From assembly GCA_024641705.1 (NCBI GenBank), contig JAHECO010000003.1, positions 75,826 through 139,825 on the forward strand: DNA of 64,000 nt, in the 5' to 3' direction. The notes beneath the pieces were generated by a model. The model had not been told where the DNA came from, did no database searches, and saw only the letters and a list, made by a program, of their open reading frames with translations. This DNA is from Candidatus Kryptoniota bacterium. GTDB lineage: Bacteria; Bacteroidota; Ignavibacteria; Kryptoniales; JAKASW01. Position 1 is the first letter of the stretch, and each line of letters opens with the position of its first letter. This document shows positions 3,837 through 63,539 of this stretch, piece by piece. The position numbers and the translations under genes are program-made.

Positions 3837-3940
3837 TGGTTTCACGTGGAACGGTTGACAAATTGGCAGGGTCCAGCCCGCAAAACAGCGTCCCTTCGAA
3901 AGCCTTTGCCAAACAGAGTAGGATCCCCTAAGGAGTGAGT

Positions 3941-5809: not shown

Positions 5810-5962
5810 GAGAGCGTTTCACACGATGCGTTCGACGACAGGAGTTTCACGTGAAACATGCTGGAGAAAAGACGGAACCGATCCTGCAAACCGCTGATTC
5901 TGTGCGTTATCGGGGGATTATTACACTACTTCATGGAAATGTTGGAAGCGAGGTCTGTACTA

Positions 5963-6895
5963 ATGGCTGAAAGAAAGAGCCTGTTCGATGAGCTCGGCAC
6001 GCTTACTACCGAAGAGCGGAACAAAGCTTCGATGAACATCGATGCAGCGAGCATCGCAGAAATACTTCGCATCATTAATGCCGAGGACAAGAAGGTCGCG
6101 TTCGCCGTTGAGGGAGAACTAGCCTTTATCGAGGAAGCGACCGAAATGGTCGCGGCGGCGTTCCGCCGTGGCGGGAGACTCTTCTACGTCGGCGCCGGAA
6201 CGAGCGGACGGATTGGAGTGCAGGATGCTGTCGAGTGTCCGCCGACATTCGGAACCCTACCGGACCTTGTGCAGGGAATGATCGCCGGCGGAAGACCCGC
6301 CATGTTCAAGGCACAGGAGGGTGCTGAGGACAAGGAGGAAAACGGCGAGAATGATATCGTGGCACACGGTATAACTGAAAGAGATGTTGTTTGCGGGATC
6401 GCCGCGAGCAGGAGAACGCCGTATGTGGTCGGTGCGATCAGGAAGGCGAAGCAGCTCGGTGCGAAAACCGTTTTCGTTACGACGAACCCGCGCTCCCAAT
6501 TCGACCTTGAGGTCGATGTAGCGATCTGCCCGGAAGTCGGACCGGAAGTTATCATGGGTTCGACGCGGATGAAATCGGGAACCGCTCAGAAAATGGTTCT
6601 TAACATGATTACCACGGCCGCCATGATCAGACTCGGGAAGGTTTATGAGAACATGATGGTCGATCTCCAGATGACAAACAGGAAACTCGAGGAAAGATCC
6701 AAACGCATAGTTATGACAATAACCGGGGTGGATTATGGTAAGGCGGAAGAGGTTCTGAAGAAGGCCGAGGGACATGTGAAGACGGCCGTCGTCATGATCA
6801 GAGCTAAGGTCGAGGCGGCAGAAGCAAAGAGACGGCTCCGGAAGGCGGACGGTTTTGTAAGGCGGGCGATAGAGGCAGACTTTGGAAAAGGGTAA
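5963..6895 (+). CDS. murQ: N-acetylmuramic acid 6-phosphate etherase
   Basis: SIS-domain protein with LTTEERN, GRLFYVGAGTSGR and GSTRMKSGTAQK motifs. Trimmed to the internal ATG (MAERKSLF). Confidence 0.85.
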   Translation: MAERKSLFDELGTLTTEERNKASMNIDAASIAEILRIINAEDKKVAFAVEGELAFIEEATEMVAAAFRRGGRLFYVGAGTSGRIGVQDAVECPPTFGTLPDLVQGMIAGGRPAMFKAQEGAEDKEENGENDIVAHGITERDVVCGIAASRRTPYVVGAIRKAKQLGAKTVFVTTNPRSQFDLEVDVAICPEVGPEVIMGSTRMKSGTAQKMVLNMITTAAMIRLGKVYENMMVDLQMTNRKLEERSKRIVMTITGVDYGKAEEVLKKAEGHVKTAVVMIRAKVEAAEAKRRLRKADGFVRRAIEADFGKG

Positions 6896-49935: not shown

Positions 49936-50225
49936 GGAATTTCTCGGTTCCCGGTTGCAGATGATTTTGCCACATCTTGTTGTGTTTAGATTTGACCAAA
50001 TGGAGAAGGCGATCGTTTCGCGAACGCAAGGCGCATCCGAGTTCACCAAGGTGAAGATATACTATGTTATATTGCATCATGAACCCGAGAATAGGCGTCT
50101 CATGAAAATGTCTATAGGGCCCTGACTCAAATGAAGTGGGTTGACAAGCTTAGGCTTGTATGTGGTGATGCCTGCGCGTTGCAACTTGAGTCGCTCTCAT
50201 ACCTTCTAGAACCGAGGAGGACATT

Positions 50226-51143
50226 ATGCCCAATCTGACAAAGGCGTCATTCTTGTCTGAGTTGGAAAGGCGCTTTGGTGAAACGAGGAAACTGACATCT
50301 AGTCTTTCGCTCTATGAAGTGAGCGATGGGTTACTAAGGGTGTACGTGCGGTACTCTAAAATCCATGCTGAAAGGAAGCAGGCATTTTATGGATTACGAA
50401 AAGAAGACCTGAAAGAGCTTGAAGGTCGCAATTCAGTTATATGTTTCTTGTGGGACACGCAGGTTGAACCTTTGTTTCTCCCTTTCTCTGAATTTGAGGA
50501 TATACTTAACTTCGTTACCCCAGCTTCGGATGGCCAAATAAAGGCGTCCATCTTCCAACAAAGAGATGCGACAGAGTTATACATATCCAATACGGGGAGG
50601 TTTAATGTTGAAGCGTTTTTCGGGTGGAACTATTTGGAACGACTTGTGGATAAGAATCGGATAGTGTCAGTGCCAGAATTTAGTCATTCCCAGATCCAGA
50701 CTCTTATAGGTTCGATTGGCGCTTCAAAAGGCTATGATATCTGGGTTCCGTTGGTTGATAGGAATAAACTCGACTGGAAACTCGCTCGGAAGTTTAATTG
50801 TAGAGCATCGCTGCCTGACAGGTATGGGCGAGTGAAGGAGATAATCAGCGAGGTAGATGTCATGTGGTTACAACGTGGATCAAGCGACTTGAATGCGATA
50901 TTCGAGGTAGAGCATTCGACACCAGTGTATTCGGGTTTGCTTAGGTTCAACGATCTATTCTTGACTGAACCTAATCTCAAATTGAAATATAGCATCGTTT
51001 CCAACGACGAGAGAAGGTCTTTGTTCCTGAGGCAGATAGACAGACCAACTTTCAAGGCTAGCGGTTTGTCAGAGGTTTGCAGTTTCCTTGAGTATAAGGA
51101 TGTTTTTCTCTGGTATAATAGGATTATGGGGGTGAGAGGATGA
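50226..51143 (+). CDS. hypothetical two-domain protein with restriction-endonuclease-like C-terminal signature
   Basis: Clean 305-aa ORF after GAGGAGG in a low-GC islet (sample lines 43-47% GC). The C-terminal half reads HSQIQTLIGSIG..GYDIWVP...EVDVMWL...AIFEVEHSTPVYSGLLRFNDL. The function is inferred only. Confidence 0.55.
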   Translation: MPNLTKASFLSELERRFGETRKLTSSLSLYEVSDGLLRVYVRYSKIHAERKQAFYGLRKEDLKELEGRNSVICFLWDTQVEPLFLPFSEFEDILNFVTPASDGQIKASIFQQRDATELYISNTGRFNVEAFFGWNYLERLVDKNRIVSVPEFSHSQIQTLIGSIGASKGYDIWVPLVDRNKLDWKLARKFNCRASLPDRYGRVKEIISEVDVMWLQRGSSDLNAIFEVEHSTPVYSGLLRFNDLFLTEPNLKLKYSIVSNDERRSLFLRQIDRPTFKASGLSEVCSFLEYKDVFLWYNRIMGVRG

Positions 51144-51334
51144 AGAGGATTTGGATTCTCGTGCAAAGCAAGAGAGGCATCTTTCTCGATCCGCAGATTT
51201 TTTACGCAAAGAAAGATGCCGTAGACAAAAAGAACCATTTACTCGACCGGTCTAATCCCGCATATGATGAAATCGAGGTTTTCGAAAAGAGAGTACTGGC
51301 AGGTGAGACCCATAGGAGCAGGAGGCGAGGCTGA
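51140..51334 (+). CDS. small hypothetical protein coupled to preceding gene
   Basis: ATGA start/stop overlap with the 305-aa gene. 64 aa with no recognisable motif. Confidence 0.35.
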   Translation: MKRIWILVQSKRGIFLDPQIFYAKKDAVDKKNHLLDRSNPAYDEIEVFEKRVLAGETHRSRRRG

Positions 51335-51475
51335 TCGCCAGTTGAGGGGGAGGGTTACAATGTTGTGCGTCAGGGCCGCAACAGTCCCCCGGTTCCCCTT
51401 TTGATTCTCGGCATTGAACCTTGAAGAGAGGCGCAGTAGGCCTTTTCCTGCTGTTGCCGATTCGAGATTAATTTC

Positions 51476-52057
51476 CTACCGCATCATTCCCAGCTGCAGG
51501 CACAGCGTGATTCCCCAGAAAGATCTGGTATTGCCGAACCCGTAGTCGCCGAAAGCTGTCAGACCGATCCCTAAAAAGCTCGTCGGCGTCCAGAAGAGCT
51601 GCGCCTCGACCGGGATGCCGATGCCGAACGAGTTGTTGGTGTCGTAACCGTACGTGTACGATGGCGGTCTGTAATACGGCTCCGAGTAAGTAGTTGCTGA
51701 GGAGACTGAGAGGCCGGCGGATATCGAGGCGTGCCCGTAGCTTGTCTTCGCGATCCTACCGTAGAGGACCCCCAGCTCCCACATGTGGTCATCAGGATGG
51801 CTCTGTCCGAAAATGTGTAGTTCGAATTGTGAATTGTAAAGGAATCTCAGGGTGACGAGGTTTCTTCCCCGATTGGCGGAAATACCTGCACCGAAGTTGC
51901 CTGCCAGGTCACCGCGCCAGCTTCCCACCCCGAGTCCCAGGTTGAGACAGCCGCTTAGACTTGTCGAGGCGGTGTCGCGTTCTTCGGCGGCAAGACACTC
52001 GGATCCGCAAATATTGGGAAGGGATAGCAATGCAACAAGAAGGAAAAACTTCTTCAT
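51476..52057 (-). CDS. small outer-membrane beta-barrel-like protein
   Basis: Signal peptide MKKFFLLVALLSL, Gly/aromatic alternating strands, and a C-terminal ..LCLQLGMMR. Confidence 0.5.
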   Translation of the reverse strand: MKKFFLLVALLSLPNICGSECLAAEERDTASTSLSGCLNLGLGVGSWRGDLAGNFGAGISANRGRNLVTLRFLYNSQFELHIFGQSHPDDHMWELGVLYGRIAKTSYGHASISAGLSVSSATTYSEPYYRPPSYTYGYDTNNSFGIGIPVEAQLFWTPTSFLGIGLTAFGDYGFGNTRSFWGITLCLQLGMMR

Positions 52058-52148: not shown

Positions 52149-54056
52149 CTATTTCATCAGGACCATTTTCTTTGTACTTCGGTATTTTCCTGCTTCGATC
52201 CGGTAGAAGTACACTCCGCTCGCAAGGCGGTCCGCGGTCCACACAAGCGAGTGTGTCCCGGCAGAGTATTCGCCGTTGGCCAGTGTGGCAACCTCCCGTC
52301 CCAGCATGTCGTATACCCTGACTGTCACAAACGATTTCTGCGGGAGCGAGAAGCTTATGGTCGTGCTCGGGTTGAACGGATTCGGGAAGTTCTGAGCGAG
52401 GTTGAATTCCTTCGGAACCCTGGTTCCCCGCGCTATCTGCGTCAACGATTTCGATGCGATTTGCACGGCGGTAATCCGTCCTTCGACATTCGGGCTGATC
52501 GTGCCCTGTGCCTCTACGTAGCCTTCGACAACCGAATACTCCGCTATCCCCTGGAGCACTTGCGGATCGGTGACGGTCAGACCGGTCATCGGCCCGACGT
52601 AATCCTTCAACACGGCCAGTATGAATTCGTTCGTCGTGACCGTGTACGTCTTGCTGAAGTCGATGTCCTCTCCGCCGATCTTCACGCCGACCACTCTCGA
52701 TCCCGGCGGCTGGTCGACGGCGTAAGTGTACGTCATTCCCGATACCTGGATCAGGTACTCGTCGTTCAGGTCGATGCTGCTCAGACCGAACTCCAAACCG
52801 ATGATCAGGTCAAGTCCGGTTATTTTGAATGTCGCCAGCCTGTAGCCGAGTCCGTTGTCCGTATTGAACCCGTAGCCGACAAGACGGAAGACGTCGTCGC
52901 CGACAAGCGGTCCGTGATGCAAAGGCTGAGCTATCGACCCGCCAGCCGTGATGGCGATGTCCGTATTCGTGTAAGCCCGGAAAGCATCGGTCACCAGATT
53001 GCCCGCTGGTGTATCATGGCTGCCGGGTGATAGAAGGGAATCTGCCACTTCCGGGAAATCCGCCGTGGCGTAAGCGATCTTCTTCGTGAACATCGGCCCG
53101 TAGACCGCTTCGATTTGCTTCTCCAGCTCCTTCACCTTCAGTGCGATCAAAGGATCCTCCGGGATCGATGTGTCGAGATGGATCAGGTCGTAGTCGACTA
53201 TGCGGGCTTTACCGTGCCTGACCGCGAATTTCAGCTTACCCATATACTCATAGAACGCGCCGGCCTGCATGATGAATGTTGTGTCTCCCACCGGATTGAC
53301 CACCGGGACAGGCTGCTCGAATACATAATGGTCGTGTCCTCCGATGATGAAGTCGATCCCCGGCACGTAGGAGGCCACTATCTGGTCATACGCGAAGCCG
53401 AGATGTGACAGCAGAATCACAACGGAGCAATTGAGCTTCTTCAGCTTTTGCACCATGGATGCGGCAATTTCGACGAAATTCGTGTCTATGAACGCCGGGG
53501 CCGGCTGAGAGGTGATGTTTGTCTCGGGAGTAGTAAGCCCGAAGATACCGACCCTTGTCCCTTCGACGGTCCTTATTGTGAACGGCACGATATACTTCTT
53601 GAGCGGCTGGACTTCAGGTGCATCCAGGACCGTGTTCGCGGAGAGAAGCGGGAAGCCTTTTCCGTGGAAGGCCTCGCTCAATGACGACAGAAGCGTCGCC
53701 GGTCCGAGGTCAAATTCATGATTCCCGACCGTCATCGCGTCCACGCCGAGACTGTTGAGCATCTTTAGCTCAGGCACGCCGAAGGTCGTGTTGAAGAAGA
53801 TATCCCCGATGAAGAGATCGCCGGCGTCGAGGACGAGGGCGTCCCTGTCGTGATGCCGGGTGATCTCTATGACGGCAGCGGCACGCGCGATACCGCCGAC
53901 GGTGCCGTTGAGGTGTGTCGTCCGCGGGCCAAGCGGCGCGAGGTTCGAGTGGGTGTCGTTGAAATGAAGCAGAGTGATCGTTCTGTACTGACCTGCCGAT
54001 GTCGCGGCAAGCAACATTATCAGGGTCAGTATCCTGATCGTGATTTTCCCGAGCAT
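52149..54056 (-). CDS. bifunctional metallophosphatase/5'-nucleotidase with T9SS C-terminal sorting domain
   Basis: LLHFNDTHS, GDLF.GD, GNHEFD and GGHDH motifs. The last ~75 aa (NFPNPFNPSTTISFSL..VYDMLGREV...SGVYFYRI) are a Por/T9SS secretion tag. Confidence 0.85.
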   Translation of the reverse strand: MLGKITIRILTLIMLLAATSAGQYRTITLLHFNDTHSNLAPLGPRTTHLNGTVGGIARAAAVIEITRHHDRDALVLDAGDLFIGDIFFNTTFGVPELKMLNSLGVDAMTVGNHEFDLGPATLLSSLSEAFHGKGFPLLSANTVLDAPEVQPLKKYIVPFTIRTVEGTRVGIFGLTTPETNITSQPAPAFIDTNFVEIAASMVQKLKKLNCSVVILLSHLGFAYDQIVASYVPGIDFIIGGHDHYVFEQPVPVVNPVGDTTFIMQAGAFYEYMGKLKFAVRHGKARIVDYDLIHLDTSIPEDPLIALKVKELEKQIEAVYGPMFTKKIAYATADFPEVADSLLSPGSHDTPAGNLVTDAFRAYTNTDIAITAGGSIAQPLHHGPLVGDDVFRLVGYGFNTDNGLGYRLATFKITGLDLIIGLEFGLSSIDLNDEYLIQVSGMTYTYAVDQPPGSRVVGVKIGGEDIDFSKTYTVTTNEFILAVLKDYVGPMTGLTVTDPQVLQGIAEYSVVEGYVEAQGTISPNVEGRITAVQIASKSLTQIARGTRVPKEFNLAQNFPNPFNPSTTISFSLPQKSFVTVRVYDMLGREVATLANGEYSAGTHSLVWTADRLASGVYFYRIEAGKYRSTKKMVLMK

Positions 54057-54235: not shown

Positions 54236-54955
54236 TTAGTTGTTATATGAGTCGCGCGTTGCGCACGGACCGGAGGTCTTCAGCACCCCGTCCTCGAGGC
54301 GGAATATTCCGTCCGCATAATCGATCAGTCGAAGGTCGTGGCTGGCTGCGATGACACATCGGTTTTCATCTTTCGCGATCGAGTGAAGGATCTTAATGAT
54401 CTCGAAGCCCTGTTTCGATTCGAGACAGGCCGTCGGTTCATCCGCCAGCAGGAGATGCGGATTGTTCACGCACGCCCGCGCGATCGCCGCCCGCTGTTTC
54501 TCGCCCTGGCTCAGGTTCGCGGGATACCGGCCGGCAAGATGTGAAATCCCGACTCGTTCTAGTGCCGCCCGCGCGTGCGAGACCGCGGAATTTCTCCCGG
54601 CAAACTCTGCGACCAGTGCGACGTTTTCTTCCACTGTGAGCCAGTCGAGGAGGAGGAAGTTCTGAAATATGAACCCGATTTTCGCGGCCCTGAACAGCTG
54701 AAGCTTCGCCGGCGGCAGATCGGTTGGCTTCGTATCGAAGACGGTTACGGCTCCCGACGTGGGCTGCGTGAAGCCGGCGATAAGCGAGAGGAGGGTAGTC
54801 TTGCCGCTTCCGCTCGGGCCGAGCACCAGCGCGAGCCGACCCCGCTTGAATTCGGCGGAGGCGTCATTGAGAGCGTGCACGACACTGCCGTCCTCGCGGT
54901 AGCTCTTTGAGACGTGTTCCAATATAATCGACCGGCTTTCCGATGACGGGTTCAT
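54236..54955 (-). CDS. ABC transporter ATP-binding protein (MacB/LolD-like)
   Basis: Walker A GPSGSGKTT, LSQGEKQR signature and LLLADEPT. The ATG at 54955 overlaps the permease stop (ATGA). Confidence 0.85.
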   Translation of the reverse strand: MNPSSESRSIILEHVSKSYREDGSVVHALNDASAEFKRGRLALVLGPSGSGKTTLLSLIAGFTQPTSGAVTVFDTKPTDLPPAKLQLFRAAKIGFIFQNFLLLDWLTVEENVALVAEFAGRNSAVSHARAALERVGISHLAGRYPANLSQGEKQRAAIARACVNNPHLLLADEPTACLESKQGFEIIKILHSIAKDENRCVIAASHDLRLIDYADGIFRLEDGVLKTSGPCATRDSYNN

Positions 54956-56067
54956 TCGAATGCCTCCAGAGGATATATTCTCTTCAATCTTTGGAAGCAT
55001 ACGAGCGAACTAACAAGCCCGATTACGATTACCATGCAGATGACCGTGAATATTTGAAGCGCATCGATAGCCGTACTCAGCTCTGGAAAGAAGTTCTCCA
55101 GTGCCGCTGTAACAGGGAAGATGAGGATCAGCGATATTATGCCTCCGGAGAGGGACAGCAGCATGGCCTGACCGGTTATGAGTTTTGGAAGAAACGACGG
55201 AGGAGAGCCAAGGACCATCACGACTGCAAAATCCTTCCGGCTTTCGGCGATGTTCATTACAAGGATTGCGGTCAGGATCGTCGCGAGCACGACAGCCGAA
55301 ATGGCCGATACGATCAGGAGTATAGGAAGGAACCCCGCCCGCATCTCGCGCAAGTTGTTCTCCACAAATTCGTCCTGTGAGAAAGCGTCGATGCCGGGGA
55401 CGTCCTCCGCAATGCGCATCACCACGACGTCCCGGTCTTGCGGGTCCGAGAGGCGGACGAGGTAGCACGACACTATGTTTGGATACCCGAGTATCGACCG
55501 CGCCTGCTCGATTGTCGTGAAGGCGTACTGGATAACGAACATGTTTGTTCCCGAAGAGATGCCGACTACTTTCAACTTCTCCCTGTGGACGGTCACGCTG
55601 TCCCCGACGCGTATCCCCGACTTCAGCGCGAACGATCTGTCGAGTACTATCTCGCCGGCTTTCTCGACGTTCCTCCCCGAGACGATCTGCGGGGGGCCGC
55701 CAAGAGTATCCCCGGGGGAATAGCCCGCGATGTATATCGTTGAGGTTCGCCCGTTCGCTTCAGCCTGTGCGAGGACGAACAGCACCGGTGAAACCCGGGC
55801 CACGCCCGGAACCTGTCTCAACGCATCGCCGTAAGCCGTCAGCAGGATCGACGAACCGCGCATGATATTTCCAGTGCCCTCCTGAAGGACCCAGAAGTCG
55901 GCCTTGTTGTATCGTATGTAAGTCAGGGAGCCCACTTCCACGCCGTTATAAACCGACAGCAAAAAGAGGATGAGCATCGCGCAAAGCGACCCGGCGCCGA
56001 TAGTGAACGCCGTCCTGAACGGCTGCCTGCGGAGAGACCTGACCGAATATTTCAATGACCGTCTCAT
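54952..56067 (-). CDS. ABC transporter permease, FtsX/MacB-type
   Basis: An N-terminal TM, a large periplasmic loop, then three C-terminal TMs (FtsX-like). Confidence 0.8.
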   Translation of the reverse strand: MRRSLKYSVRSLRRQPFRTAFTIGAGSLCAMLILFLLSVYNGVEVGSLTYIRYNKADFWVLQEGTGNIMRGSSILLTAYGDALRQVPGVARVSPVLFVLAQAEANGRTSTIYIAGYSPGDTLGGPPQIVSGRNVEKAGEIVLDRSFALKSGIRVGDSVTVHREKLKVVGISSGTNMFVIQYAFTTIEQARSILGYPNIVSCYLVRLSDPQDRDVVVMRIAEDVPGIDAFSQDEFVENNLREMRAGFLPILLIVSAISAVVLATILTAILVMNIAESRKDFAVVMVLGSPPSFLPKLITGQAMLLSLSGGIISLILIFPVTAALENFFPELSTAIDALQIFTVICMVIVIGLVSSLVCFQRLKRIYPLEAFE

Positions 56068-56074
56068 TTCCGTT

Positions 56075-57178
56075 TCACGCGAACGCAGGTACCTCCGTCA
56101 CAATTTTGCCGCGGAGCCTGCCGAAGATATCCTCCAGAGATTCGCCGGTGACGGTAATGCCGTGGTTCTTGAGGCCGACTGCTGTTCGCCCGGGGTTCCC
56201 CGTGGCAGAGAGGAGTTCCGCGACCTCCTTCGCTATCTCCACAGTCCCGCAGGGATAGTTCTGACGCGTGCAAACGATACCTTCGAGCCACACGTGGACA
56301 TGCACGATGGCTCCGACTTCGGGAAAAGTTTTGTAGACCAAAGCATGCTCGACGGCGTCTATGGAAACCCGCGCCCTCGGATCAAAGTCCTGCGGAACGG
56401 AGACCAGAGCGGCCCCATTTTCGAAGTCGAAGCCTTTGACGAGAAGTATGTCCTTTCCGACTTTGCCAAGCGCGGATTTATTGACGCCTCGTCCAGTCAT
56501 CCAGTAAGTGTAGTCACCGAGCTCCGGGATCCTATCCCTCGCGCTCATGTTGCCGTAGCTCAGCCCCGTCAGCCCGAAAAGCCTGTACAGGTGTTCCATG
56601 TCTTCCGAAGGTAGGAGCTCGCGGATCGGGAAGGGGGCAGGAAGGACCCCCAGACTGTTCAGCTCCGCGGCGTATTTCTTTATGTCTTCCACGATCGGGG
56701 ATGATTGCGAGTATATCTCCGGGAGGTCGGTTGTCATTATGTTTTCCGACGCGAAGTGCGCGGTCGCTATCGGAAGGATGCTCCTGTAAACACGTTCGGG
56801 ATCGAACGCGTAGTGGTAGTATCCCGCTTCAGGCGTGGTGAAATAGCACTCCGGAGTCCCATCCGTTCCTCCGACAATTCCACCGGGCGCAACCGCACAG
56901 ATGCAAAGGTTCGAGAGCGAGCGGATAAGTGTCGTGTAACAGAACGAGCGCATGCTCCCGTTGAGATTGGGGGCAGAGGCTATCGTGATGACGAAAATGT
57001 CTTTCGACTTTCGATGGAACGGTTTCGTCCGCCCTGAGTCGGCCAGGTTAAGTACGAAGCTCGCTTCAGACAGGTCGTCAGATAACTCTGCGCCATTTTC
57101 GACGAACTTCCGGATGACCTCGTCTGCGATTGCGTCCCGCAGCAAATCCGTACCGTCCTTTTCTACTGCGAATTTCAT
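56075..57178 (-). CDS. class II aldolase/adducin-domain protein with extra N-terminal domain
   Basis: The C-terminal ~200 aa read SYGNMSAR...YWMTGRGVNKS...SIDAVEHALVY...VHVH...NHGITVTGESLE. The start was chosen at MKFAVEK, 8 nt after GGAGG. Confidence 0.65.
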   Translation of the reverse strand: MKFAVEKDGTDLLRDAIADEVIRKFVENGAELSDDLSEASFVLNLADSGRTKPFHRKSKDIFVITIASAPNLNGSMRSFCYTTLIRSLSNLCICAVAPGGIVGGTDGTPECYFTTPEAGYYHYAFDPERVYRSILPIATAHFASENIMTTDLPEIYSQSSPIVEDIKKYAAELNSLGVLPAPFPIRELLPSEDMEHLYRLFGLTGLSYGNMSARDRIPELGDYTYWMTGRGVNKSALGKVGKDILLVKGFDFENGAALVSVPQDFDPRARVSIDAVEHALVYKTFPEVGAIVHVHVWLEGIVCTRQNYPCGTVEIAKEVAELLSATGNPGRTAVGLKNHGITVTGESLEDIFGRLRGKIVTEVPAFA

Positions 57179-58565
57179 GTCCATTACCTCCCTTGTAATC
57201 ATTTCTTTGGATGACATCTCTTGATACCGAATCATTGAACGTCTCCCGTCTTCGCAGGAGCCTGGTCTTGCCAGCATTTATTCCGACGATTGCCGGCCTG
57301 TAAAATCCGAAAGACGACTCGAGAGCCGTGAAGTATGCTCCGCTGTCCATTACGGCGATTACCTCGCCCGGCATGATTGCCGGCATCCGTTTGTTTTTGT
57401 AGACAACGTCGCCGGAAAAACAGGCCGGCCCTATTATGTTCACCGTCTTATTTCTTTTGCGGCTCGTGCCGCTGCACGGGAAGACTTCATGATACTCGTA
57501 GAAGGTCGGCATGGTGACTGTCCCCAACCCACCGTCCGTGATGAGCCACGTCCGTTTGCCAGCTCTTGTCTTCACGTAATGAACCCGGAGCAGGAGGACC
57601 TGGTTCTGGCTCGCGATGGATCTGCCCGGTTCATATATCAATTCGGGGAGCATGTCGGTGCCGATGGCAGATCTCAAAGCTTCAGAGATTTTTGCGAGGT
57701 ATTCGCCGAGCGGATCGGCGGGTTTTCCGGGACGCGGGAGTATCCCGGCGCTCTGGTAAAGGAGCATCTCCGTGTCGGTCATCTCCCACGATGTGGGAGA
57801 AGGAAATCCGCCGCCGACGTCCAGGACTTGCCACTCGAGCCCTTTCCCGCGGACCAGTCTCTGGAGATATGACAGACAGCCTAAAGCACTCGCGTAGTTG
57901 GAGCTTTTTCTTATCCCGGTACCTATGTGAATGTGAAAACCTTTGAAATCTGCGTAACGGAATTTCGCCGCTGAGTCCAACGCTTCTTCTATCTCACCGC
58001 CGGCAAGGTCCAAACCGAACGGGCTTGTCTTTCTGCTTGCCGCAATCGAGCCAGTGTTTATTCTCCCGGGCCTGTATCCCGGGTTCACTCGGAGAAGAAT
58101 GTCTGCCGTTCTCCCGGTTTCCCGGCCGATCTCTTCTATTCGTTGGAGTTCCGCGATAGAGTCGACGACGATGAACCTGACTCCCGACCGGATGCAACGC
58201 AGAAGAAAATCCTGCGTCTTGCAGGGACCGTTCACGATGATCTCCTGCGGTTGATAGCCGAGTTCGAGCGCGAGGGTCAATTCGTATTCGCTCATCACCT
58301 CGGCCTTAAGTCCCGCCCGGCGGACCAGCTCCACTATCCCCGGGACGGAATTGCACTTGAAGGCGAAGTGAACAGAGACCGCACCCGCGTACGTATTTCT
58401 GGCTTCGCTTGTGAACCTCTCGGCATGTTCCGTCAGACGGCGCTCGTTCACGACATGCACAGGAGTACCGAACGACTTCGCCACCTCAGTCAGCCTCACG
58501 CCTTCCATCTGGAGGGAATCGTCCCTGTCGAGCGTAAGGCCGAAATCGGACGGACTCAATTTCAC
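57078..58565 (-). CDS. fold-type III PLP-dependent decarboxylase (Orn/DAP/Arg decarboxylase family)
   Basis: FAFKCN (PLP-Lys), HIHIGTG, DVGGGFP, EPGRSI and CFSGD motifs. The last ~45 codons look non-native and overlap the next gene. Confidence 0.8.
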   Translation of the reverse strand: MKLSPSDFGLTLDRDDSLQMEGVRLTEVAKSFGTPVHVVNERRLTEHAERFTSEARNTYAGAVSVHFAFKCNSVPGIVELVRRAGLKAEVMSEYELTLALELGYQPQEIIVNGPCKTQDFLLRCIRSGVRFIVVDSIAELQRIEEIGRETGRTADILLRVNPGYRPGRINTGSIAASRKTSPFGLDLAGGEIEEALDSAAKFRYADFKGFHIHIGTGIRKSSNYASALGCLSYLQRLVRGKGLEWQVLDVGGGFPSPTSWEMTDTEMLLYQSAGILPRPGKPADPLGEYLAKISEALRSAIGTDMLPELIYEPGRSIASQNQVLLLRVHYVKTRAGKRTWLITDGGLGTVTMPTFYEYHEVFPCSGTSRKRNKTVNIIGPACFSGDVVYKNKRMPAIMPGEVIAVMDSGAYFTALESSFGFYRPAIVGINAGKTRLLRRRETFNDSVSRDVIQRNDYKGGNGHEIRSRKGRYGFAAGRNRRRGHPEVRRKWRRVI

Positions 58566-58658
58566 GGAAGAATCTCCTTTCTGTTGCGCAACAATATCGG
58601 CATCGCGGAAAGCCGCCCTGTCAACGATTTCCCGGATCGGTGTAAAATTTTGGTCATC

Positions 58659-59771
58659 TCAGTCAAGCCGCTTGCCCAGTATCCAGAAATTCTTGTCGCG
58701 CTCCAGGCCGAGCGCTTTCGCGATTCGTACCGCCGGGGAATTATCGTCGTACATCCATGTCGTCTCGAGTGAATCGAAACGGAGGCAAATCCTGCAAAGG
58801 GCGTCGAAGAGCAGCTTCGTGACCTCGGAATGACGGGCCTCCTTCCTGATCCCCGCGGCGTATATGATGAGATTCCTGCTTTGCCTCCTTTCGCGCATGA
58901 GCTGCCAGTAGAGGAGGGGAATCGGCAGTCTCCGGAGCGAGATAAGGAGCGGGTTTATGTCGTATACGCACTGAAGCACCCCGTAAGGCACCCCCTCCTT
59001 TTCCACGATTATGTTGAGCTCGGGCGAGCTGACATATTTGATGTACTTTGCCGTGAAGGCATATTCTTCCCGGCTGACCGGGAGAAACCGCCAGTTGGAT
59101 TCGAAGGCGTCGTTGTAAACCTCCCGCACTTTTGCCAGCTCTCCATCGAGATTCCTCATGTCGAGTTGCCGAGCGTTGAAGCCCGACGATGACGCTGTTG
59201 AGAACGTCGTCCCGAAGTTGCGCGCGACGAATTGACGGATGTCGGGGTTCTTTCTAGTATGGATTTCGAAGGACCGTCTGAAACCGGCGTTCGTCAGAAG
59301 CGCTTCGTAATACGGCGGGTTGTGTGTCTGGAAGAATGCGGGCGGTTTATCGAACGCTTCCGTCTGAAGGCCCAGGTCGGAGTAGTGGTTCGGATTGTAA
59401 GGCCCTTCCAGGATTGCGGCGCCGTTCGCTTTGCAATATTCGCTTGCCCGTCGGAACAGAATCGCCACGGCTTCGGGATCATTCTCGGCCTCGAAGAATC
59501 CGAAGAATGCGATCCCTTCGCCGGTCTTCTCCTTGTAGAGGGGGTTTATGACGACGGCAGTGCGCGCGACGGGATTACCGTTTCTCAGGCAGAGGAACAA
59601 CCGGAGCGACGAGTTCCTGAAGTACGGGTTCTTCTCCGCGTCGAGGGTTTCCTTCACGTATGAACCCGTCGTCGGAATGTAGAACGGATCATCGGCGTAC
59701 AGCCGGGCCGTCAACTTAAAGAAGGCTCGCCTCAGGCTCCAGCTGTTTGCTTCAATGGCTTCGTATCCCAT
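58659..59771 (-). CDS. uncharacterised GNAT-fold-like acyltransferase family protein
   Basis: 370-aa ORF. The N-terminal F..L...LY.DDPFYIP... pattern is seen in proteins usually annotated N-acetyltransferase. Assignment is weak. Confidence 0.45.
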   Translation of the reverse strand: MGYEAIEANSWSLRRAFFKLTARLYADDPFYIPTTGSYVKETLDAEKNPYFRNSSLRLFLCLRNGNPVARTAVVINPLYKEKTGEGIAFFGFFEAENDPEAVAILFRRASEYCKANGAAILEGPYNPNHYSDLGLQTEAFDKPPAFFQTHNPPYYEALLTNAGFRRSFEIHTRKNPDIRQFVARNFGTTFSTASSSGFNARQLDMRNLDGELAKVREVYNDAFESNWRFLPVSREEYAFTAKYIKYVSSPELNIIVEKEGVPYGVLQCVYDINPLLISLRRLPIPLLYWQLMRERRQSRNLIIYAAGIRKEARHSEVTKLLFDALCRICLRFDSLETTWMYDDNSPAVRIAKALGLERDKNFWILGKRLD

Positions 59772-60883
59772 CGCTGCTCCCGTTTATGGATATGTTCCAC
59801 GACGTAATTGTTGTACATGAAAGACCTGTCGGATTCGTGCAGTCTCCCCGCTAATGTCGTATCGGATTTGATAAAGCCGTCCAGCGAGCGGGGGTGTTCG
59901 CGGTGCACGAGGAGGTTTCTGTAAGTCATGACGGCGTTGTCGCCGGCGACACGGATAGTCTCTCGGAGTGTCGCCTCGAACTGATCGGCCGGCATCCATT
60001 CGAAGATGTTCGTGAAATTGAACCTCGTGATGCATCCGCGCGGCAGGCGGGCAAAATAGTCCGCGCACGATCCCGTGACTATCTCCAGGCGGTCGAGATT
60101 CGCCCTGATGCGGTCGTAGTTTTCTCGCTTCAAGTATTCCGGGAGGCTTTCATCGCAGGCGTACCCGCCCAGGAGGATGTACGTGAGGAAGCTGCTTTCG
60201 CGCGGGTTCAAGAAGATGAGAGCCGTTCGAGCCCGTTCCGCGAAGTGATTCCCGAAAGAGAAGCCGGTGTCGAGCTGCGCGAAGAAAGCCTTCGTGAAAA
60301 GAAAACTCATCGTCGACCGGCTGAGAATCACGTTCGTCAGGAACTGCCATCTGAGGTTGTTCCACTTCGAATCGAACACCGATTCACGCCCGGCTGAATC
60401 GCGTGCATCGAACATGCTTTCGATCGCGCTGTCCCCGATCGTCATTCTGAGCAGGACCCGTATCATCTTCATGTATTCTTCGAACCTGCCGGAGTCGATT
60501 ACTCCGTGCTCGATTTTCCCGGCCTGTCCGTCCCAGTAACTCCTGCTATTGCTGCTGAGGCCGCTCCGTATTTTCACGTACAGGCTGCGCCGTCGCGAAG
60601 ATTCCACGACTCCGAGTAATTCCAGCGTCTCGTTGTACTCCAGTCGGCGAAATGCATTCATCTTGAAATCGAGGAGATAGTTCTGAAAGGGATTAAGATC
60701 GAGCGAGATGATCTTCCGCGGGCTATCGGCCAGGAAGGCGAGCACGTTGCATCCGCCGGAGGTAATGGAGAAGACCACGTCGGTGTTCCGGATGCGAAAC
60801 GCTTCTCTGTCCATTGCGGGGTCTTCCCAGCATTGCGCGTAGAGGGTGTCGTCGAAGACGCCCTCTCGCTTGAATGGGTTCAT
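59732..60883 (-). CDS. BtaA-like (DUF3419) S-adenosylmethionine:diacylglycerol 3-amino-3-carboxypropyltransferase family protein
   Basis: YAQCWEDPAMDREAF..V.SITSGGCNVLAFL......I.SLDLNPFQNYLL is the characteristic DUF3419/BtaA N-terminal signature. Confidence 0.7.
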   Translation of the reverse strand: MNPFKREGVFDDTLYAQCWEDPAMDREAFRIRNTDVVFSITSGGCNVLAFLADSPRKIISLDLNPFQNYLLDFKMNAFRRLEYNETLELLGVVESSRRRSLYVKIRSGLSSNSRSYWDGQAGKIEHGVIDSGRFEEYMKMIRVLLRMTIGDSAIESMFDARDSAGRESVFDSKWNNLRWQFLTNVILSRSTMSFLFTKAFFAQLDTGFSFGNHFAERARTALIFLNPRESSFLTYILLGGYACDESLPEYLKRENYDRIRANLDRLEIVTGSCADYFARLPRGCITRFNFTNIFEWMPADQFEATLRETIRVAGDNAVMTYRNLLVHREHPRSLDGFIKSDTTLAGRLHESDRSFMYNNYVVEHIHKREQRWDTKPLKQTAGA

Positions 60884-60884
60884 G

Positions 60885-61646
60885 TCATTCCTCTGCGTTT
60901 GCCGCTTCTTTGCGATCGGCGGTGCCGACGATCGTGTGGATTATCGCCCAGTCGAATACGGCCGGCAGTCCTATCGCAAGAGCGAGGAAGAAATTGTGCG
61001 TGAAAGAGGCGACGATGAAACCGGGGACGAACAAGAGATAAAGCGCGTTGTGACGTACGCCGTCCTTACTGAACGTTACGCTGCGGCTGATGAGAATTGT
61101 CCTGCAGATACTCCTCAAAGTCGGGAAGAAAGGAGGAGTGAATTTCTCGTAAGTGGAGAATTGGAGACGGTATTCCCCGCGCAATTCGGTTTGCTCGTAT
61201 GCGATTAGTCTCCTGTAATGCAACAGGAGGAAAAAGGGGAGCGATACCGCAATCGAGGGCATGACAACGGCAAATCCGCAGAAGGCGGTGAAGTCGGCGA
61301 GGTAAATAGGGTTCCTGCAGAGCGTGTATGGGGGATCGGTAAGGAGGCTGTCCGTCTGGACCTGGAACGCCATCATCCGGTGCGAGCTGAGAGTGCTCCC
61401 CGCCCAGATCCTCAGTGCGCTCGCCGCGACCATGAATACCGCCGCAATGAGATACGCCGCGGATTGCGCCCAGTCCCTCCCAATCCCGAGAAATGAGGAG
61501 AGCGCCTCAAATGGCGAAGGGAGATAATCGAACGTGTTCAGAGAGAGGAGCGCGACGGCTATGACGATTCCGAACGAGACGAAGATCCTGTATTCGAACT
61601 CCAGTCGCAGAACTGCTTCCCGAAAGGATTCTTTCTTCTCAGTCAT
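60885..61646 (-). CDS. membrane methyltransferase of the ICMT/PEMT (phospholipid methyltransferase) superfamily
   Basis: Multi-TM protein with LLTDPPYTLCRNPIYLADF...RLIAYEQTELRGEY. ATG at 61646. Confidence 0.65.
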   Translation of the reverse strand: MTEKKESFREAVLRLEFEYRIFVSFGIVIAVALLSLNTFDYLPSPFEALSSFLGIGRDWAQSAAYLIAAVFMVAASALRIWAGSTLSSHRMMAFQVQTDSLLTDPPYTLCRNPIYLADFTAFCGFAVVMPSIAVSLPFFLLLHYRRLIAYEQTELRGEYRLQFSTYEKFTPPFFPTLRSICRTILISRSVTFSKDGVRHNALYLLFVPGFIVASFTHNFFLALAIGLPAVFDWAIIHTIVGTADRKEAANAEE

Positions 61647-62592
61647 GTTGACTCCCGTTTGATGGAACGTATACCTGGATTGCATTGGGGACTACCGATA
61701 TTTCCGCGGGGAGCGTGCCAAGCATTTCACCGTCAGCTTCGAGAAGTACAGGCCCGGCGGATTCGAGCGTGATACGTTTCCCCTGTCTATATGTGAACCG
61801 CGGCGACTTCAAGTGGTTCGCCGAGTAAATCTTCGGGAGATTAATGAGGCGGCTGAATACGCTCGTAGTCTTGATCAAGAGAACGTCGAGCTTTCCGTCG
61901 TTGAACGTCGCCTTCGGCGTCAGGTTCATGCCGCCGCCCGTGTGTGTGCCGTTGGCGACGACGACTCCGAACATAGGCATTTCATATTCTCCGTCCCCGT
62001 CGATCGAAACCCGCATGTCGAAGTTGCCGAGCGTCAGCGTAAGCCTCAGGGTGGTGAGACCGAAGCCGAGGAAGCCGCTCCTTTTTCTGCCGCTCGCTTC
62101 TATATTCTTCACGACTTGGCCGCCTATCCCGGCCTGGCATTCATTTACGAAGTACCGCAGCCTCCGGCCGCTCCCGTTCTCCTCCCAGCTGACGAGTCCT
62201 ACTTCTATGGCTTTCGTCCTCCCTGATGCTATTACCCGCACCTGCTCGTCCACGGTCGGCGGCAAGCCGAGGCTCTGCGCCAATCCCTGGCCAGTTCCGC
62301 TGCTGACGATTCCGAGCGCGCATCCGGTAGTCGCGCCGTTCCGGGTTGACAGCAGACCGTTCACGATTTCATTTATTGTTCCATCCCCTCCGATGGCGAC
62401 GACGGCATCGTCACCGCCGAGCGCGGCTTCGCGTGCCATGTCGGCAGCTTCATTTCTCCTGGAAGTCGTCCTCACTACGAGCTGCGGACCGAAATACTGC
62501 CTCAGGAACTCAACTACTTTACCGGAAATGATCCGGGTTCGGCCGTTGGCAGACGCCGGATTGACTATTGCGGTGATCTTGCTCGGTTCCAT
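61639..62592 (-). CDS. YegS/DagK-type lipid (diacylglycerol) kinase
   Basis: ITAIVNPASANGR and AIGGDGTINEIVNGL catalytic-domain motifs. ATG at 62592. Confidence 0.8.
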   Translation of the reverse strand: MEPSKITAIVNPASANGRTRIISGKVVEFLRQYFGPQLVVRTTSRRNEAADMAREAALGGDDAVVAIGGDGTINEIVNGLLSTRNGATTGCALGIVSSGTGQGLAQSLGLPPTVDEQVRVIASGRTKAIEVGLVSWEENGSGRRLRYFVNECQAGIGGQVVKNIEASGRKRSGFLGFGLTTLRLTLTLGNFDMRVSIDGDGEYEMPMFGVVVANGTHTGGGMNLTPKATFNDGKLDVLLIKTTSVFSRLINLPKIYSANHLKSPRFTYRQGKRITLESAGPVLLEADGEMLGTLPAEISVVPNAIQVYVPSNGSQHD

Positions 62593-62978: not shown

Positions 62979-63539
62979 ATGGCTACTACCTCTGAATTCA
63001 GACCAGGGTTGACGATTCGTTACAATAACGATTTGTGGACGATTGTGGAGTTTCAGCACGTAAACCCCGGCAACTGGCGGGCATTTGTTCGCGCTAAGAT
63101 GAAGAATATCAAGACCGGACAGGTAATCGAGAACAGGTTCCGCGCAGGGCAGGATATAGATGTGGTCAGGATCGAGCAGCGTAATTATCAGTATCTTTAC
63201 CGCGACGGTGACATGCTGGTGTTCATGGACAACGATACCTACGACCAGATCCACGTGCCGGAAGACGTTGTCGGTGCGGGAAGCAAGTTCCTGAAGGAGA
63301 ACGAGAACATCCAGATTTTCTTCAACGGGACGGAGATTACGGGCGTCGAGATTCCGATTTTCGTGAGTCTCAGAGTCGTTGAAACCGAACCCGGCGTCAA
63401 AGGCGATAGTGTCAACAACGTCATGAAGCCCGCCAAGATGGAAACGGGCGCGACAGTCAACGTTCCTCTATTCGTCAACGAGGGAGAAGTTCTTAAGATA
63501 GATACGCGCAACGGCGCATACGTGGAGCGCGTGAAGTAG
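62979..63539 (+). CDS. efp: elongation factor P
   Basis: 186 aa. FRPGLTIRYNNDLWTIVEFQHVNPGNWRAFVRAKMKNIKTG and the C-terminal OB domains. Confidence 0.9.
   Translation: MATTSEFRPGLTIRYNNDLWTIVEFQHVNPGNWRAFVRAKMKNIKTGQVIENRFRAGQDIDVVRIEQRNYQYLYRDGDMLVFMDNDTYDQIHVPEDVVGAGSKFLKENENIQIFFNGTEITGVEIPIFVSLRVVETEPGVKGDSVNNVMKPAKMETGATVNVPLFVNEGEVLKIDTRNGAYVERVK

Follow-up and report, generated by a model that had tools for sequence, protein, structure and literature searches.

What is made by an operon that holds a DUF3419 protein, the family of BtaA, without a gene for BtaB, the partner of BtaA in the synthesis of diacylglyceryl-trimethylhomoserine (DGTS)? This question is raised by eight consecutive genes in a stretch of 64,000 nucleotides (here called the window) of contig JAHECO010000003.1 from a Candidatus Kryptoniota bacterium. 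The genes encode a lipid kinase, a PEMT-like membrane protein, the DUF3419 protein, a 370-aa protein of the tandem-GNAT type, a pyridoxal phosphate (PLP) dependent decarboxylase, a two-domain protein with a class II aldolase-like half, and an ABC permease together with its ATPase. Known enzyme families and known reaction types are combined here in an undescribed and very widespread way. It is probable that the operon synthesises and exports a lipid, because it encodes a YegS-type kinase, a PEMT-like protein, a homologue of the N-acyltransferase YghO and a transporter of the MacB/Lol/DevA type. For aminopropylation as the core chemistry of the operon we see about an even chance.

Open reading frame (ORF) calling on the window gave eight consecutive minus-strand ORFs, from 62649 to 54236. 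Start codons (62592, 61646, 60883, 59771, 58565, 57178, 56067 and 54955) were placed where the similarity to relatives begins, by which the operon spans 62592-54236 (Table 1); for the kinase, whose longest ORF extends to 62649, this similarity begins near M20 (62592). The starts of the PEMT-like gene and of the ABC gene agree with an independent gene call on the identical public contig. All junctions listed in an earlier sequence-only reading of this DNA were found again (an 8-nt overlap, a 1-nt gap, a 40-nt overlap, a 101-nt overlap, a 7-nt gap and an ATGA overlap), and every domain call made there was reproduced with Pfam and NCBIfam models. One junction absent from that reading, a 93-nt gap between the genes of the 370-aa protein and the decarboxylase (58566-58658), is the sole sizeable spacer. 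Upstream the operon is bounded by a divergent gene for elongation factor P (EF-P; 62979-63539). The eight genes most likely form one operon, and the proposal of a single transcription-unit-like cassette is borne out by the gene packing and by the conserved order in relatives. Generic promoter and terminator scans gave counts no better than those for shuffled sequences and so carry no information on where the operon begins or ends, Bacteroidota-type promoters lying outside the models of the scan, and an Rfam scan of the whole window returned no match.

Table 1. Genes of the operon, in order of transcription, and two genes downstream of it (positions in the window).
Product	Position	Strand	Basis or remark
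YegS/BmrU-family lipid kinase	61639-62592	-	M20 of longest ORF; operon gene 1
PEMT/ICMT-superfamily polytopic membrane methyltransferase-like protein	60885-61646	-	M14
DUF3419 (BtaA-family fold) protein	59732-60883	-	PF11899
370-aa tandem-GNAT N-acyltransferase	58659-59771	-	AlphaFold2 (AF2) model and Foldseek; YghO/CC_1154 homology
Fold-type III PLP decarboxylase, diaminopimelate (DAP) decarboxylase clade	57078-58565	-	Orn_Arg_deC_N + Orn_DAP_Arg_deC
Orphan N-domain + class II aldolase-like domain protein	56075-57178	-	M34; homology of relatives begins at about residue 34
MacB/LolC-type FtsX permease	54952-56067	-	MacB_PCD + FtsX
ABC ATPase, partner of the permease	54236-54955	-	M16; ABC_tran
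Secreted 5'-nucleotidase/phosphoesterase, membership uncertain	52149-54056	-	Metallophos + 5_nucleotid_C + Por_Secre_tail (type IX secretion system, T9SS)
193-aa protein after the 5'-nucleotidase	51476-52057	-	N-terminal signal peptide by eye; no family match

A one-genome-per-species collection was scanned with a profile of the 370-aa protein and 327 matching stretches were confirmed; loci were compared for the best 80 of these, using tblastn with the eight window proteins. All 80 come from metagenome-assembled genomes, which carry about ten phylum labels, including Ignavibacteriota, Bacteroidota (Bacteroidales, Chitinophagaceae, Saprospiraceae and others), Aminicenantes/Acidobacteriota and Gemmatimonadota, and further WOR-3, Nitrospirota, Trueperaceae, Planctomycetia and Calditrichia. 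The six core genes are present in 66 of the 76 loci with a close homologue, the remaining 10 being cut by contig ends, and in each of the 66 complete loci they follow the order kinase, PEMT, DUF3419, GNAT, decarboxylase, aldolase on one strand. Because the same genes recur, with order and strand unchanged, in 66 of 66 cases, this arrangement is far beyond chance, and the conservation of the neighbourhood, which the sequence-only reading had named as a check on its proposal, is decisively established. The FtsX/ABC pair directly follows the core in at least 46 of the 55 loci with room for it; it is missing, with the core intact, in at least six loci with downstream room, all from Bacteroidales and Trueperaceae genomes. 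Since the pair is absent from this Bacteroidales set and from a Trueperaceae genome, the core consists of six genes and the exporter is a frequent add-on. The identity of the DUF3419 proteins between phyla (45-57%) is about as high as within phyla, which points to a horizontal spread of the cassette. In metagenomes, hundreds of homologues each were found for the DUF3419 protein and for the 370-aa protein. Full-text literature searches brought up no account of these genes as a set, in agreement with what the sequence-only reading had said of described pathways.

The PEMT-like and DUF3419 proteins are closely associated. Most DUF3419 homologues have 610-645 aa and carry an N-terminal PEMT domain, and one ORF covers both domains in 57 of the 73 loci, so that the split form of the window, with its 1-nt gap, belongs to a minority. 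Because they are fused in most relatives, both domains presumably work as a unit. The PEMT-like protein matches PF04191 with 30.3 bits (cut-off 25), which places it in the superfamily, and shows a weak NCBIfam match to LmtA, a lipid A phosphate methyltransferase. Across 60 relatives with the fusion, the motifs GPY.L.RNPIYLAD and HY..LI.YEE..L are kept in the PEMT-like domain, with RNP in place of RHP; we take them to be the cofactor region of the PEMT/ICMT type. The conservation of these motifs in all 60 relatives suggests that the domain is probably catalytically active, and its putative methyl acceptor may be a nitrogen, a carboxyl group or a phosphate.

The DUF3419 protein matches PF11899 with 231 bits over residues 9-362, that is, over the full-length domain. 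To our knowledge the transfer of the 3-amino-3-carboxypropyl (acp) group of S-adenosylmethionine (SAM) is the sole characterised activity of DUF3419, and this is the only family known to put such a group on a lipid. The sequence-only reading had taken the protein for a BtaA and had itself named a position outside the BtaA clade as an observation that would speak against this. In a neighbour-joining tree the protein falls into a tight clade apart from three BtaA proteins with an adjacent BtaB-type class I methyltransferase. It shares 26-27% identity with these BtaB-linked BtaA proteins, which come from Sinorhizobium, R. leguminosarum and Chondrinema (Bacteroidota), and 46-57% identity is found within its own multi-phylum clade. 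Orthology to BtaA is therefore not upheld. The N-terminal motifs WEDP, SGGCN and D(L/V)NP, putative SAM-binding motifs, line up between the DUF3419 protein and BtaA and are kept in both. A BtaB-type class I N-methyltransferase was found neither among the eight genes nor in the gene families that recur in the flanks of 70+ loci, as had been claimed.

Compared with the BtaA/BtaB pathway for DGTS of Rhodobacter, rhizobia and some Bacteroidota, the cassette thus shares the PF11899 enzyme with WEDP/SGGCN/DLNP and the pairing of a SAM-using enzyme with a methyltransferase; the fusion of PEMT and DUF3419 parallels the eukaryotic BTA1, in which BtaA-like and BtaB-like domains are fused. However, the clade is separate, BtaB is replaced as the partner by a polytopic protein of the PEMT/ICMT type, and the kinase, the GNAT, the PLP decarboxylase and the aldolase-like protein, all strictly conserved in the cassette, have no counterpart in the DGTS pathway. 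When the DUF3419, GNAT, PEMT and aldolase-family sequences served as queries, the PDB yielded no useful match, and no structure for the DUF3419 protein.

The nearest outgroup to the DUF3419 clade of the window, at 30-34% identity, consists of DUF3419 proteins from Brevibacillus and Roseinatronobacter. Because this outgroup clade sits in a different conserved cluster, DUF3419 appears to reach beyond BtaA. In two separate lipid-type clusters DUF3419 has a phosphorylating enzyme and a GNAT as companions. The outgroup cluster itself (L085 1839-13227 in Brevibacillus laterosporus, L086 523-8507 in Roseinatronobacter sp. S2) is worth recording: it contains genes for a 3-hydroxy-3-methylglutaryl-coenzyme A (HMG-CoA) reductase, a UbiA prenyltransferase, a phosphotransferase resembling pyruvate phosphate dikinase (PPDK-like, phosphoenolpyruvate-utilising), the DUF3419 protein, a hypothetical protein of 439 aa, a GNAT, an AMP-binding enzyme and a cytochrome P450. 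This second conserved cluster is apparently undescribed and has the look of a route to a modified isoprenoid lipid.

The decarboxylase belongs to fold type III, as 68 orthologues keep AFKCNS with the PLP lysine, HIGTG, GGGF, EPGR and the catalytic Cys. Its best PDB matches are LysA, the D-Orn/Lys decarboxylase DokD, BtrK and FslC. A true LysA was rejected, since the lysA model TIGR01048 gives 273.2 bits (cut-off 297.9) and the residues at the distal site differ: in the 68 cluster orthologues GTVTMPTYY and CF(A/S) stand where LysA has NDxxRPxxY and CES, by which the Arg and Glu of the LysA type are replaced by hydrophobic Met and Phe. The view that this decarboxylase is something other than LysA is thereby confirmed. 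The comparison with carboxy(nor)spermidine decarboxylase, made in the sequence-only reading, does not hold: carboxynorspermidine decarboxylase was rejected as the closest relative, as the NspC match amounts to only 22 bits and the protein sits in the clade of DAP decarboxylase (DAPDC). MccE, BtrK, FigC, SbnH and AcsE share a clade with DAPDC, and the non-LysA members decarboxylate side-chain-tethered amino acids (PMC7857480); the membership of MccE is taken from that paper.

The conserved part of the decarboxylase ends near residue 453 (about 57206), where all relatives end. The last ~42 residues in the window (57078-57206) form a non-conserved, basic, Arg/Gly-rich tail, which is the source of the 101-nt overlap with the aldolase gene. 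In a relative, L002, this overlap measures just 4 nt, and a metagenomic relative has both genes fused in frame. Loss of a stop codon, an error in sequencing or a genuine extension of the protein could each account for the tail.

A SAM-dependent enzyme followed by such a decarboxylase is known from the synthesis of microcin C. There MccD transfers the acp group of SAM onto a phosphate oxygen, after which the N-terminal domain of MccE, a PLP decarboxylase, removes the carboxyl group and leaves an aminopropyl group (PMC10491745). The logic shared with the cassette comprises a SAM enzyme, a decarboxylase of the DAPDC clade with alanine-racemase fold, and a GNAT alongside (PMC10491745, PMC7857480); a phosphate oxygen as the acceptor would, moreover, give the kinase of the cassette a role. 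The differences are that MccD lies outside DUF3419, that the substrate of MccD and MccE is a peptidyl-nucleotide and not a lipid, and that the C-terminal GNAT of MccE is a single-domain immunity acetyltransferase and not of the tandem type. The resemblance is one of mechanism, not of family. Two-step aminopropylation is proposed because in the cassette a SAM family of the acp type is strictly coupled to a decarboxylase of the kind that acts on side-chain-tethered amino acids.

The 370-aa protein has no significant Pfam match on its own. Its AF2 model (predicted local distance difference test score, pLDDT, 92) is a tandem GNAT, and the top Foldseek matches are tandem-GNAT enzymes with E-values of 1e-13 to 1e-10, the best structures in the PDB being the clavulanate tandem GNAT, a glucosamine N-acetyltransferase, MAB_4324 and mycothiol synthase. 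One match is annotated yghO, and among the homologues on plasmids is an N-acetyltransferase from a Klebsiella locus in which genes for a fatty acyl-AMP ligase (FAAL), an epimerase, an acyl carrier protein (ACP) and an alpha-oxoamine synthase (AOS) lie divergent to it. To the YghO-type protein of Klebsiella the 370-aa protein is homologous over its full length (25% identity, E 4e-40, 354 residues). In a published analysis YghO (ECD_02850) and CC_1154 of Caulobacter are identified with the acyl-CoA N-acyltransferase of dihydroceramide synthesis, encoded in the same five-gene layout as the Klebsiella locus (PMC9386255; for bacterial ceramide synthesis see also PMC11087976, PMC11334938). Tandem-GNAT paralogues of about 30% identity (25-33%) which occur without the cassette adjoin a gene like that of serine palmitoyltransferase (Spt) wherever the contig permits a view; these Spt-like genes score 560-572 bits to the CFB Spt model and usually have a NAD-dependent reductase alongside.

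By these relationships the 370-aa protein belongs to a sister clade of the bacterial ceramide synthase bCerS and is not its orthologue. The homology to bCerS (YghO/CC_1154) points to fatty N-acylation of a lipid amine as the expected chemistry. Of the generic GNAT-like acyltransferase proposed from the sequence, the acyltransferase fold thus stands, and the generic acylation gives way to a specific homology to bCerS. With bacterial ceramide synthesis (Spt, AcpR/AasR, CerR, bCerS) the cassette shares a full-length YghO-type homologue whose nearest paralogues are Spt-linked, and with the ceramide kinase CpgB and the sphingolipid-phosphate clusters a kinase of the DAGK_cat family. It differs in having no Spt, no specialised ACP and no reductase, none of which was found within the examined flanks of any of the 76 cluster loci, and in the distance of its GNAT to the Spt-linked paralogues. 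Because serine palmitoyltransferase is missing, the amine substrate must come by another route. Taken by its sequences, the cassette is neither a btaAB system nor a sphingolipid (Spt) cluster.

Several loci with related acyltransferases are of interest in their own right. The Spt-adjacent paralogues from Cytophagia and Acidobacteriota (L079 8689-11080; L082 ~2510-6000; L083 2341-5935; L080 1015-3341) mark candidate sphingolipid clusters in uncultured lineages. In an Ignavibacterium locus (L008, 16459-17550) a second tandem-GNAT copy with ~32% identity to the Spt-linked type lies ~2 kb downstream of the cassette, past a 5'-nucleotidase gene. On plasmid p546-2 of Roseomonas haemaphysalidis (L094, 621-12627) a YghO-type N-acyltransferase is mis-annotated as "dATP pyrophosphohydrolase"; it has as neighbours an LptF/LptG permease, a nucleotidyltransferase, a fatty acyl-AMP ligase, a short-chain dehydrogenase/reductase (SDR), a CDP-alcohol phosphatidyltransferase, a DAGK-family kinase and a metallophosphoesterase, and the whole looks like a plasmid-borne phospho-sphingolipid cluster. 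The kinase of the window was also considered as an orthologue of this Roseomonas DAGK protein, and this was rejected, the likeness being at the family level only.

The kinase, first gene in all 66 complete loci, matches PF00781 (DAGK_cat) with 89.5 bits and PF19279 (YegS_C) with 108 bits, and contains the motif GGDGT. With 144.4 bits to TIGR00147 (cut-off 118.65) it belongs to the YegS/Rv2252/BmrU lipid kinases. At the other end of the operon, the permease matches PF12704 (MacB_PCD, 46.5 bits) and PF02687 (FtsX, 40.4 bits) and the ATPase PF00005 (ABC_tran, 112.7 bits), which together represent a MacB-type (type VII) transporter with a separate ATPase. The best NCBIfam matches of the ATPase are of the DevA, FtsE and LolD types, all under the equivalog cut-offs. 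The architecture of a permease with a separate ATPase is shared with the LolCDE/MacB/DevBCA type VII systems, extractors of lipoproteins or glycolipids from the inner membrane. In addition to the missed cut-offs, the cassette differs from these systems by the lack of a membrane-fusion (adaptor) protein or an outer-membrane partner, none being seen in the conserved cassette or its flanks.

The aldolase-like protein is conserved over all 367 residues from M34, whereas PF00596 (Aldolase_II, 60 bits) covers only its C-terminal half (residues 233-390 of the long ORF). Likewise, Foldseek with the AF2 model (pLDDT 88.7) matched AraD, YgbL, FucA and MtnB/APIP to the C-terminal domain only. E277, H278, H293, H295, H339, GxSxGNxS, T..RG and S272 are invariant. 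This domain thus belongs to the class II aldolase/adducin superfamily by its fold, its metal site of one Glu and three His (E277, H293, H295, H339) and its apparent phosphate loops; GxSxGNxS, T..RG and the Ser we take, by their motif pattern, to correspond to the phosphate and metal sites of the class II aldolase FucA. The N-terminal domain of ~190 aa has no Pfam match at E-values up to 10 and no relative in the PDB by Foldseek. Among 1.84 billion proteins it occurs in only 80 representative clusters, almost always joined to the aldolase domain. One metagenomic relative (P0364, 843 aa) is a fusion of the decarboxylase, the N-domain and the aldolase domain, followed by FtsX and ABC genes, and links the decarboxylase with the aldolase-like enzyme.

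The idea that this protein acts like MtnB in the salvage of methylthioadenosine received faint support. MtnB is the best NCBIfam match of the aldolase-like protein and of three distant relatives; the scores lie far under the cut-off of the equivalog (TIGR03328: 23.5 bits for the protein of the window and 31-39 bits for the distant members, cut-off 137). In L097/L098 (5438-9149) a distant member with N-domain and aldolase domain (25% identity in the N-domain) comes directly after a gene for a bifunctional homocysteine S-methyltransferase/methylenetetrahydrofolate reductase (MTHFR) and a second, ordinary class II aldolase gene of 230 aa. Such a methionine-cycle neighbourhood may hint at an ancestral role of the two-domain enzyme. 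Other distant relatives are found in unrelated sugar contexts.

From these results we propose that the cassette makes and exports an undescribed membrane amino-lipid by the following scheme of aminopropylation, a model which as a whole we regard as evenly balanced between right and wrong. The YegS-type kinase would first phosphorylate a membrane lipid alcohol, diacylglycerol (DAG) or another hydroxyl lipid. The DUF3419 protein, acting with the PEMT-like domain, would then move the acp group of SAM onto the lipid, either onto a hydroxyl, as BtaA does, or onto the new phosphate, as in MccD. The lipid phosphate is a serious alternative acceptor because of the MccD precedent, the conserved kinase in the first position and the phosphotransferase beside the sister DUF3419 clade. 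In a third step the PLP decarboxylase would strip the alpha-carboxyl group and leave an aminopropyl head group, in two steps as MccD and MccE do. Next, the ceramide-synthase homologue would place a fatty acyl group on the primary amine, or the PEMT-like domain would methylate this amine, or both. The aldolase-like metalloenzyme might act on a phosphorylated intermediate or dispose of a by-product derived from methylthioadenosine, and the MacB/LolCDE-like ABC pair would finally draw the product out of the inner membrane, destined for the outer one.

In this scheme, decarboxylation followed by N-methylation of a lipid-bound amino acid, with a membrane enzyme of the PEMT superfamily, also recalls the path from phosphatidylserine (PS) over phosphatidylethanolamine (PE) to phosphatidylcholine (PC) by Psd and PmtA/PEMT. 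It differs in that the decarboxylase is a PLP enzyme of fold type III and not the pyruvoyl enzyme Psd, and in that the amino acid, as proposed, would derive from homoserine and be put in place from SAM, whereas in the PS path it is serine, brought in by way of CDP-DAG. By analogy, the cassette would come closest to MccD/MccE aminopropylation carried over to lipids and joined with tailoring of the PS-to-PE-to-PC kind and acylation of the ceramide-synthase type.

Several points weigh against this model. The DUF3419 protein lies outside the clade of the BtaB-linked BtaA proteins, in what is a small neighbour-joining tree, and DUF3419 proteins occur in unrelated gene contexts; that it would transfer the acp group rather than a methyl group we infer. 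That the Arg and Glu of LysA bind the distal end of DAP is presumed here. Two SAM-type enzymes and an N-acyltransferase for one amine are more modifiers than a simple linear scheme would seem to need, and with phosphatidic acid as the acceptor the cassette would hardly seem to need a DAG kinase of its own. The model is weakest for the aldolase-like protein with its orphan domain, the roles of which it leaves unexplained: class II aldolase chemistry normally needs a sugar-like substrate with a 2-keto-1-phosphate, and such a compound is produced at no step.

Among the alternatives, the one put forward by the sequence-only reading survives best, and we consider it unlikely. In this view a true BtaA makes ether-linked diacylglyceryl-homoserine from DAG, the head group of which is remodelled by the decarboxylase, the membrane methyltransferase and the acyltransferase to give a phosphorus-free aminolipid for export by the ABC pair; the kinase would do no more than handle DAG, and the aldolase would serve in methylthioadenosine salvage. 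The DUF3419 fold with WEDP, SGGCN and DLNP, common to BtaB-linked BtaA, agrees with it, as do a decarboxylase other than LysA, the very weak but best match to MtnB together with the one distant member beside the homocysteine methyltransferase/MTHFR gene, and the phosphoesterases beside the cluster in several lineages which, with a PhoB-like regulator (see below), fit a response to phosphate starvation. However, the position of the DUF3419 protein outside the BtaA clade at 26-27% identity does not agree with a true BtaA; MtnB alone would be insufficient for methylthioadenosine salvage, even apart from scores of 23-39 bits against a cut-off of 137; and the response regulator scores under the PhoB cut-off and nearly equally with MtrA and YycF. 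The strictly conserved kinase gene in first place and the apparent phosphate-site motifs of the aldolase fit poorly, too, and a phosphorus-free product is doubtful given these two observations. Altogether the sequence-only reading is partly borne out: the cassette, the families and the order of acp transfer and decarboxylation, which has a precedent in MccD/MccE, stand, and the orthology to BtaA and the phosphorus-free product are not supported.

We judge it improbable that DUF3419 acts here as a methyltransferase or another SAM enzyme without acp transfer. In that case the decarboxylase would make an amine from a free or side-chain-acylated amino acid (lysine/ornithine-type, DAP-like), which the bCerS homologue would acylate with a fatty acid to an Spt-free N-acyl amine or ceramide-like lipid, to be methylated, phosphorylated and exported. 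The substrate of bCerS, to which the tandem GNAT is indeed homologous, is a free long-chain amine, and DAGK_cat kinases are found beside bCerS-type genes in sphingolipid-like clusters; the varied contexts of DUF3419 suggest that the chemistry of the family may exceed that of BtaA, and the decarboxylase clade includes enzymes, FslC among them, acting on side-chain-acylated amino acids. Yet the cluster has no gene to supply a long-chain base, the only characterised activity of DUF3419 is acp transfer, and the hydrophobic Met and Phe at the distal site of LysA argue against a charged diamino-acid substrate. A SAM enzyme able to create an alpha-amino acid moiety is paired with a decarboxylase, for which acp transfer is the simpler explanation. 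It is very unlikely that the product is an exported non-membrane metabolite (an aminopropylated and acylated antibiotic, surfactant or metal binder) secreted by the MacB-type pump, since, for all that the triad of acp transfer, decarboxylase and GNAT is known from the microcin C antibiotic pathway, that pumps of this type, as a family, export small molecules and peptides, and that the patchy spread over about ten phylum labels resembles a horizontally spread accessory trait, the conserved core contains no precursor peptide, nonribosomal peptide synthetase (NRPS), polyketide synthase (PKS), NRPS-independent siderophore (NIS) synthetase or adenylating enzyme, four of its six products are of lipid-associated families (the kinase, the PEMT-like protein together with the DUF3419 protein to which it is fused, and the bCerS homologue), and at least six loci with room (Bacteroidales, Trueperaceae) have an intact core without the ABC pair.

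Genes flanking the cassette give some hints of regulation. The 5'-nucleotidase gene of the window is co-oriented with the operon and separated by 179 nt from the ABC gene upstream of it; in four other loci (L008, L014, L021, L022) a homologue comes after the ABC pair in the same orientation, and in a Bacteroidales locus (L063) a Metallophos gene and a small outer-membrane beta-barrel protein gene come after the core. These downstream phosphoesterases may reflect co-regulation for phosphate scavenging or only lineage synteny. A response regulator of the OmpR/PhoB family is encoded near 12 loci (for example L006, 6146-6826), in 10 of the 12 upstream of the kinase gene and on the same strand. A histidine kinase gene flanks 15 loci, and a sigma-54-dependent response regulator flanks 8 other loci, mostly upstream on the opposite strand. 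The window itself has neither an OmpR/PhoB-type nor a sigma-54-type response regulator, the upstream side of the cassette being occupied by the divergent EF-P gene. The OmpR/PhoB-family regulator reaches 211 bits with the PhoB model (cut-off 296), and MtrA and YycF score about the same, so that its scores do not set it apart from other OmpR-family members. Induction under phosphate limitation would fit the flanking phosphoesterases and the regulator, which is suggestive only. Farther downstream, the window has a G+C content of 0.45-0.46 at 50000-51500, compared with ~0.56 around it. An ORF there (50226-51143, plus strand) had no Pfam match in our scan; the public contig identical to this DNA comes with a precomputed annotation that gives PF27126 (NmeDI_C), a domain of the restriction-endonuclease type. 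This region may be a small foreign insert.

Tentatively, the cassette can be read as the sign of a new class of membrane lipids, in which an aminopropylated lipid hydroxyl or phosphate is fatty-acylated to a ceramide-like lipid independent of Spt, or to a lipid like a homologated PE or PC, and exported to the outer membrane by the ABC pair. Such lipids would be widespread in uncultured bacteria, among them Ignavibacteriota, Bacteroidota, Aminicenantes, Gemmatimonadota and others from sediments, fens and wastewater. If the aminopropylation model is true, many of these bacteria make a membrane or outer-membrane lipid which lipidomics has left unassigned and whose genes are annotated only as "hypothetical" or "DUF". 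The lipid chemistry of SAM aminocarboxypropyl transfer would then extend beyond DGTS, aminopropylation in microcin C would have a counterpart in lipids, and a ceramide-synthase homologue would be working without serine palmitoyltransferase. The N-terminal domain of the aldolase-like protein represents an unexplored fold tied to the pathway of the cassette, and the cassette genes can serve as a set of markers when unknown aminolipids from sediments, peat and wastewater are to be interpreted.

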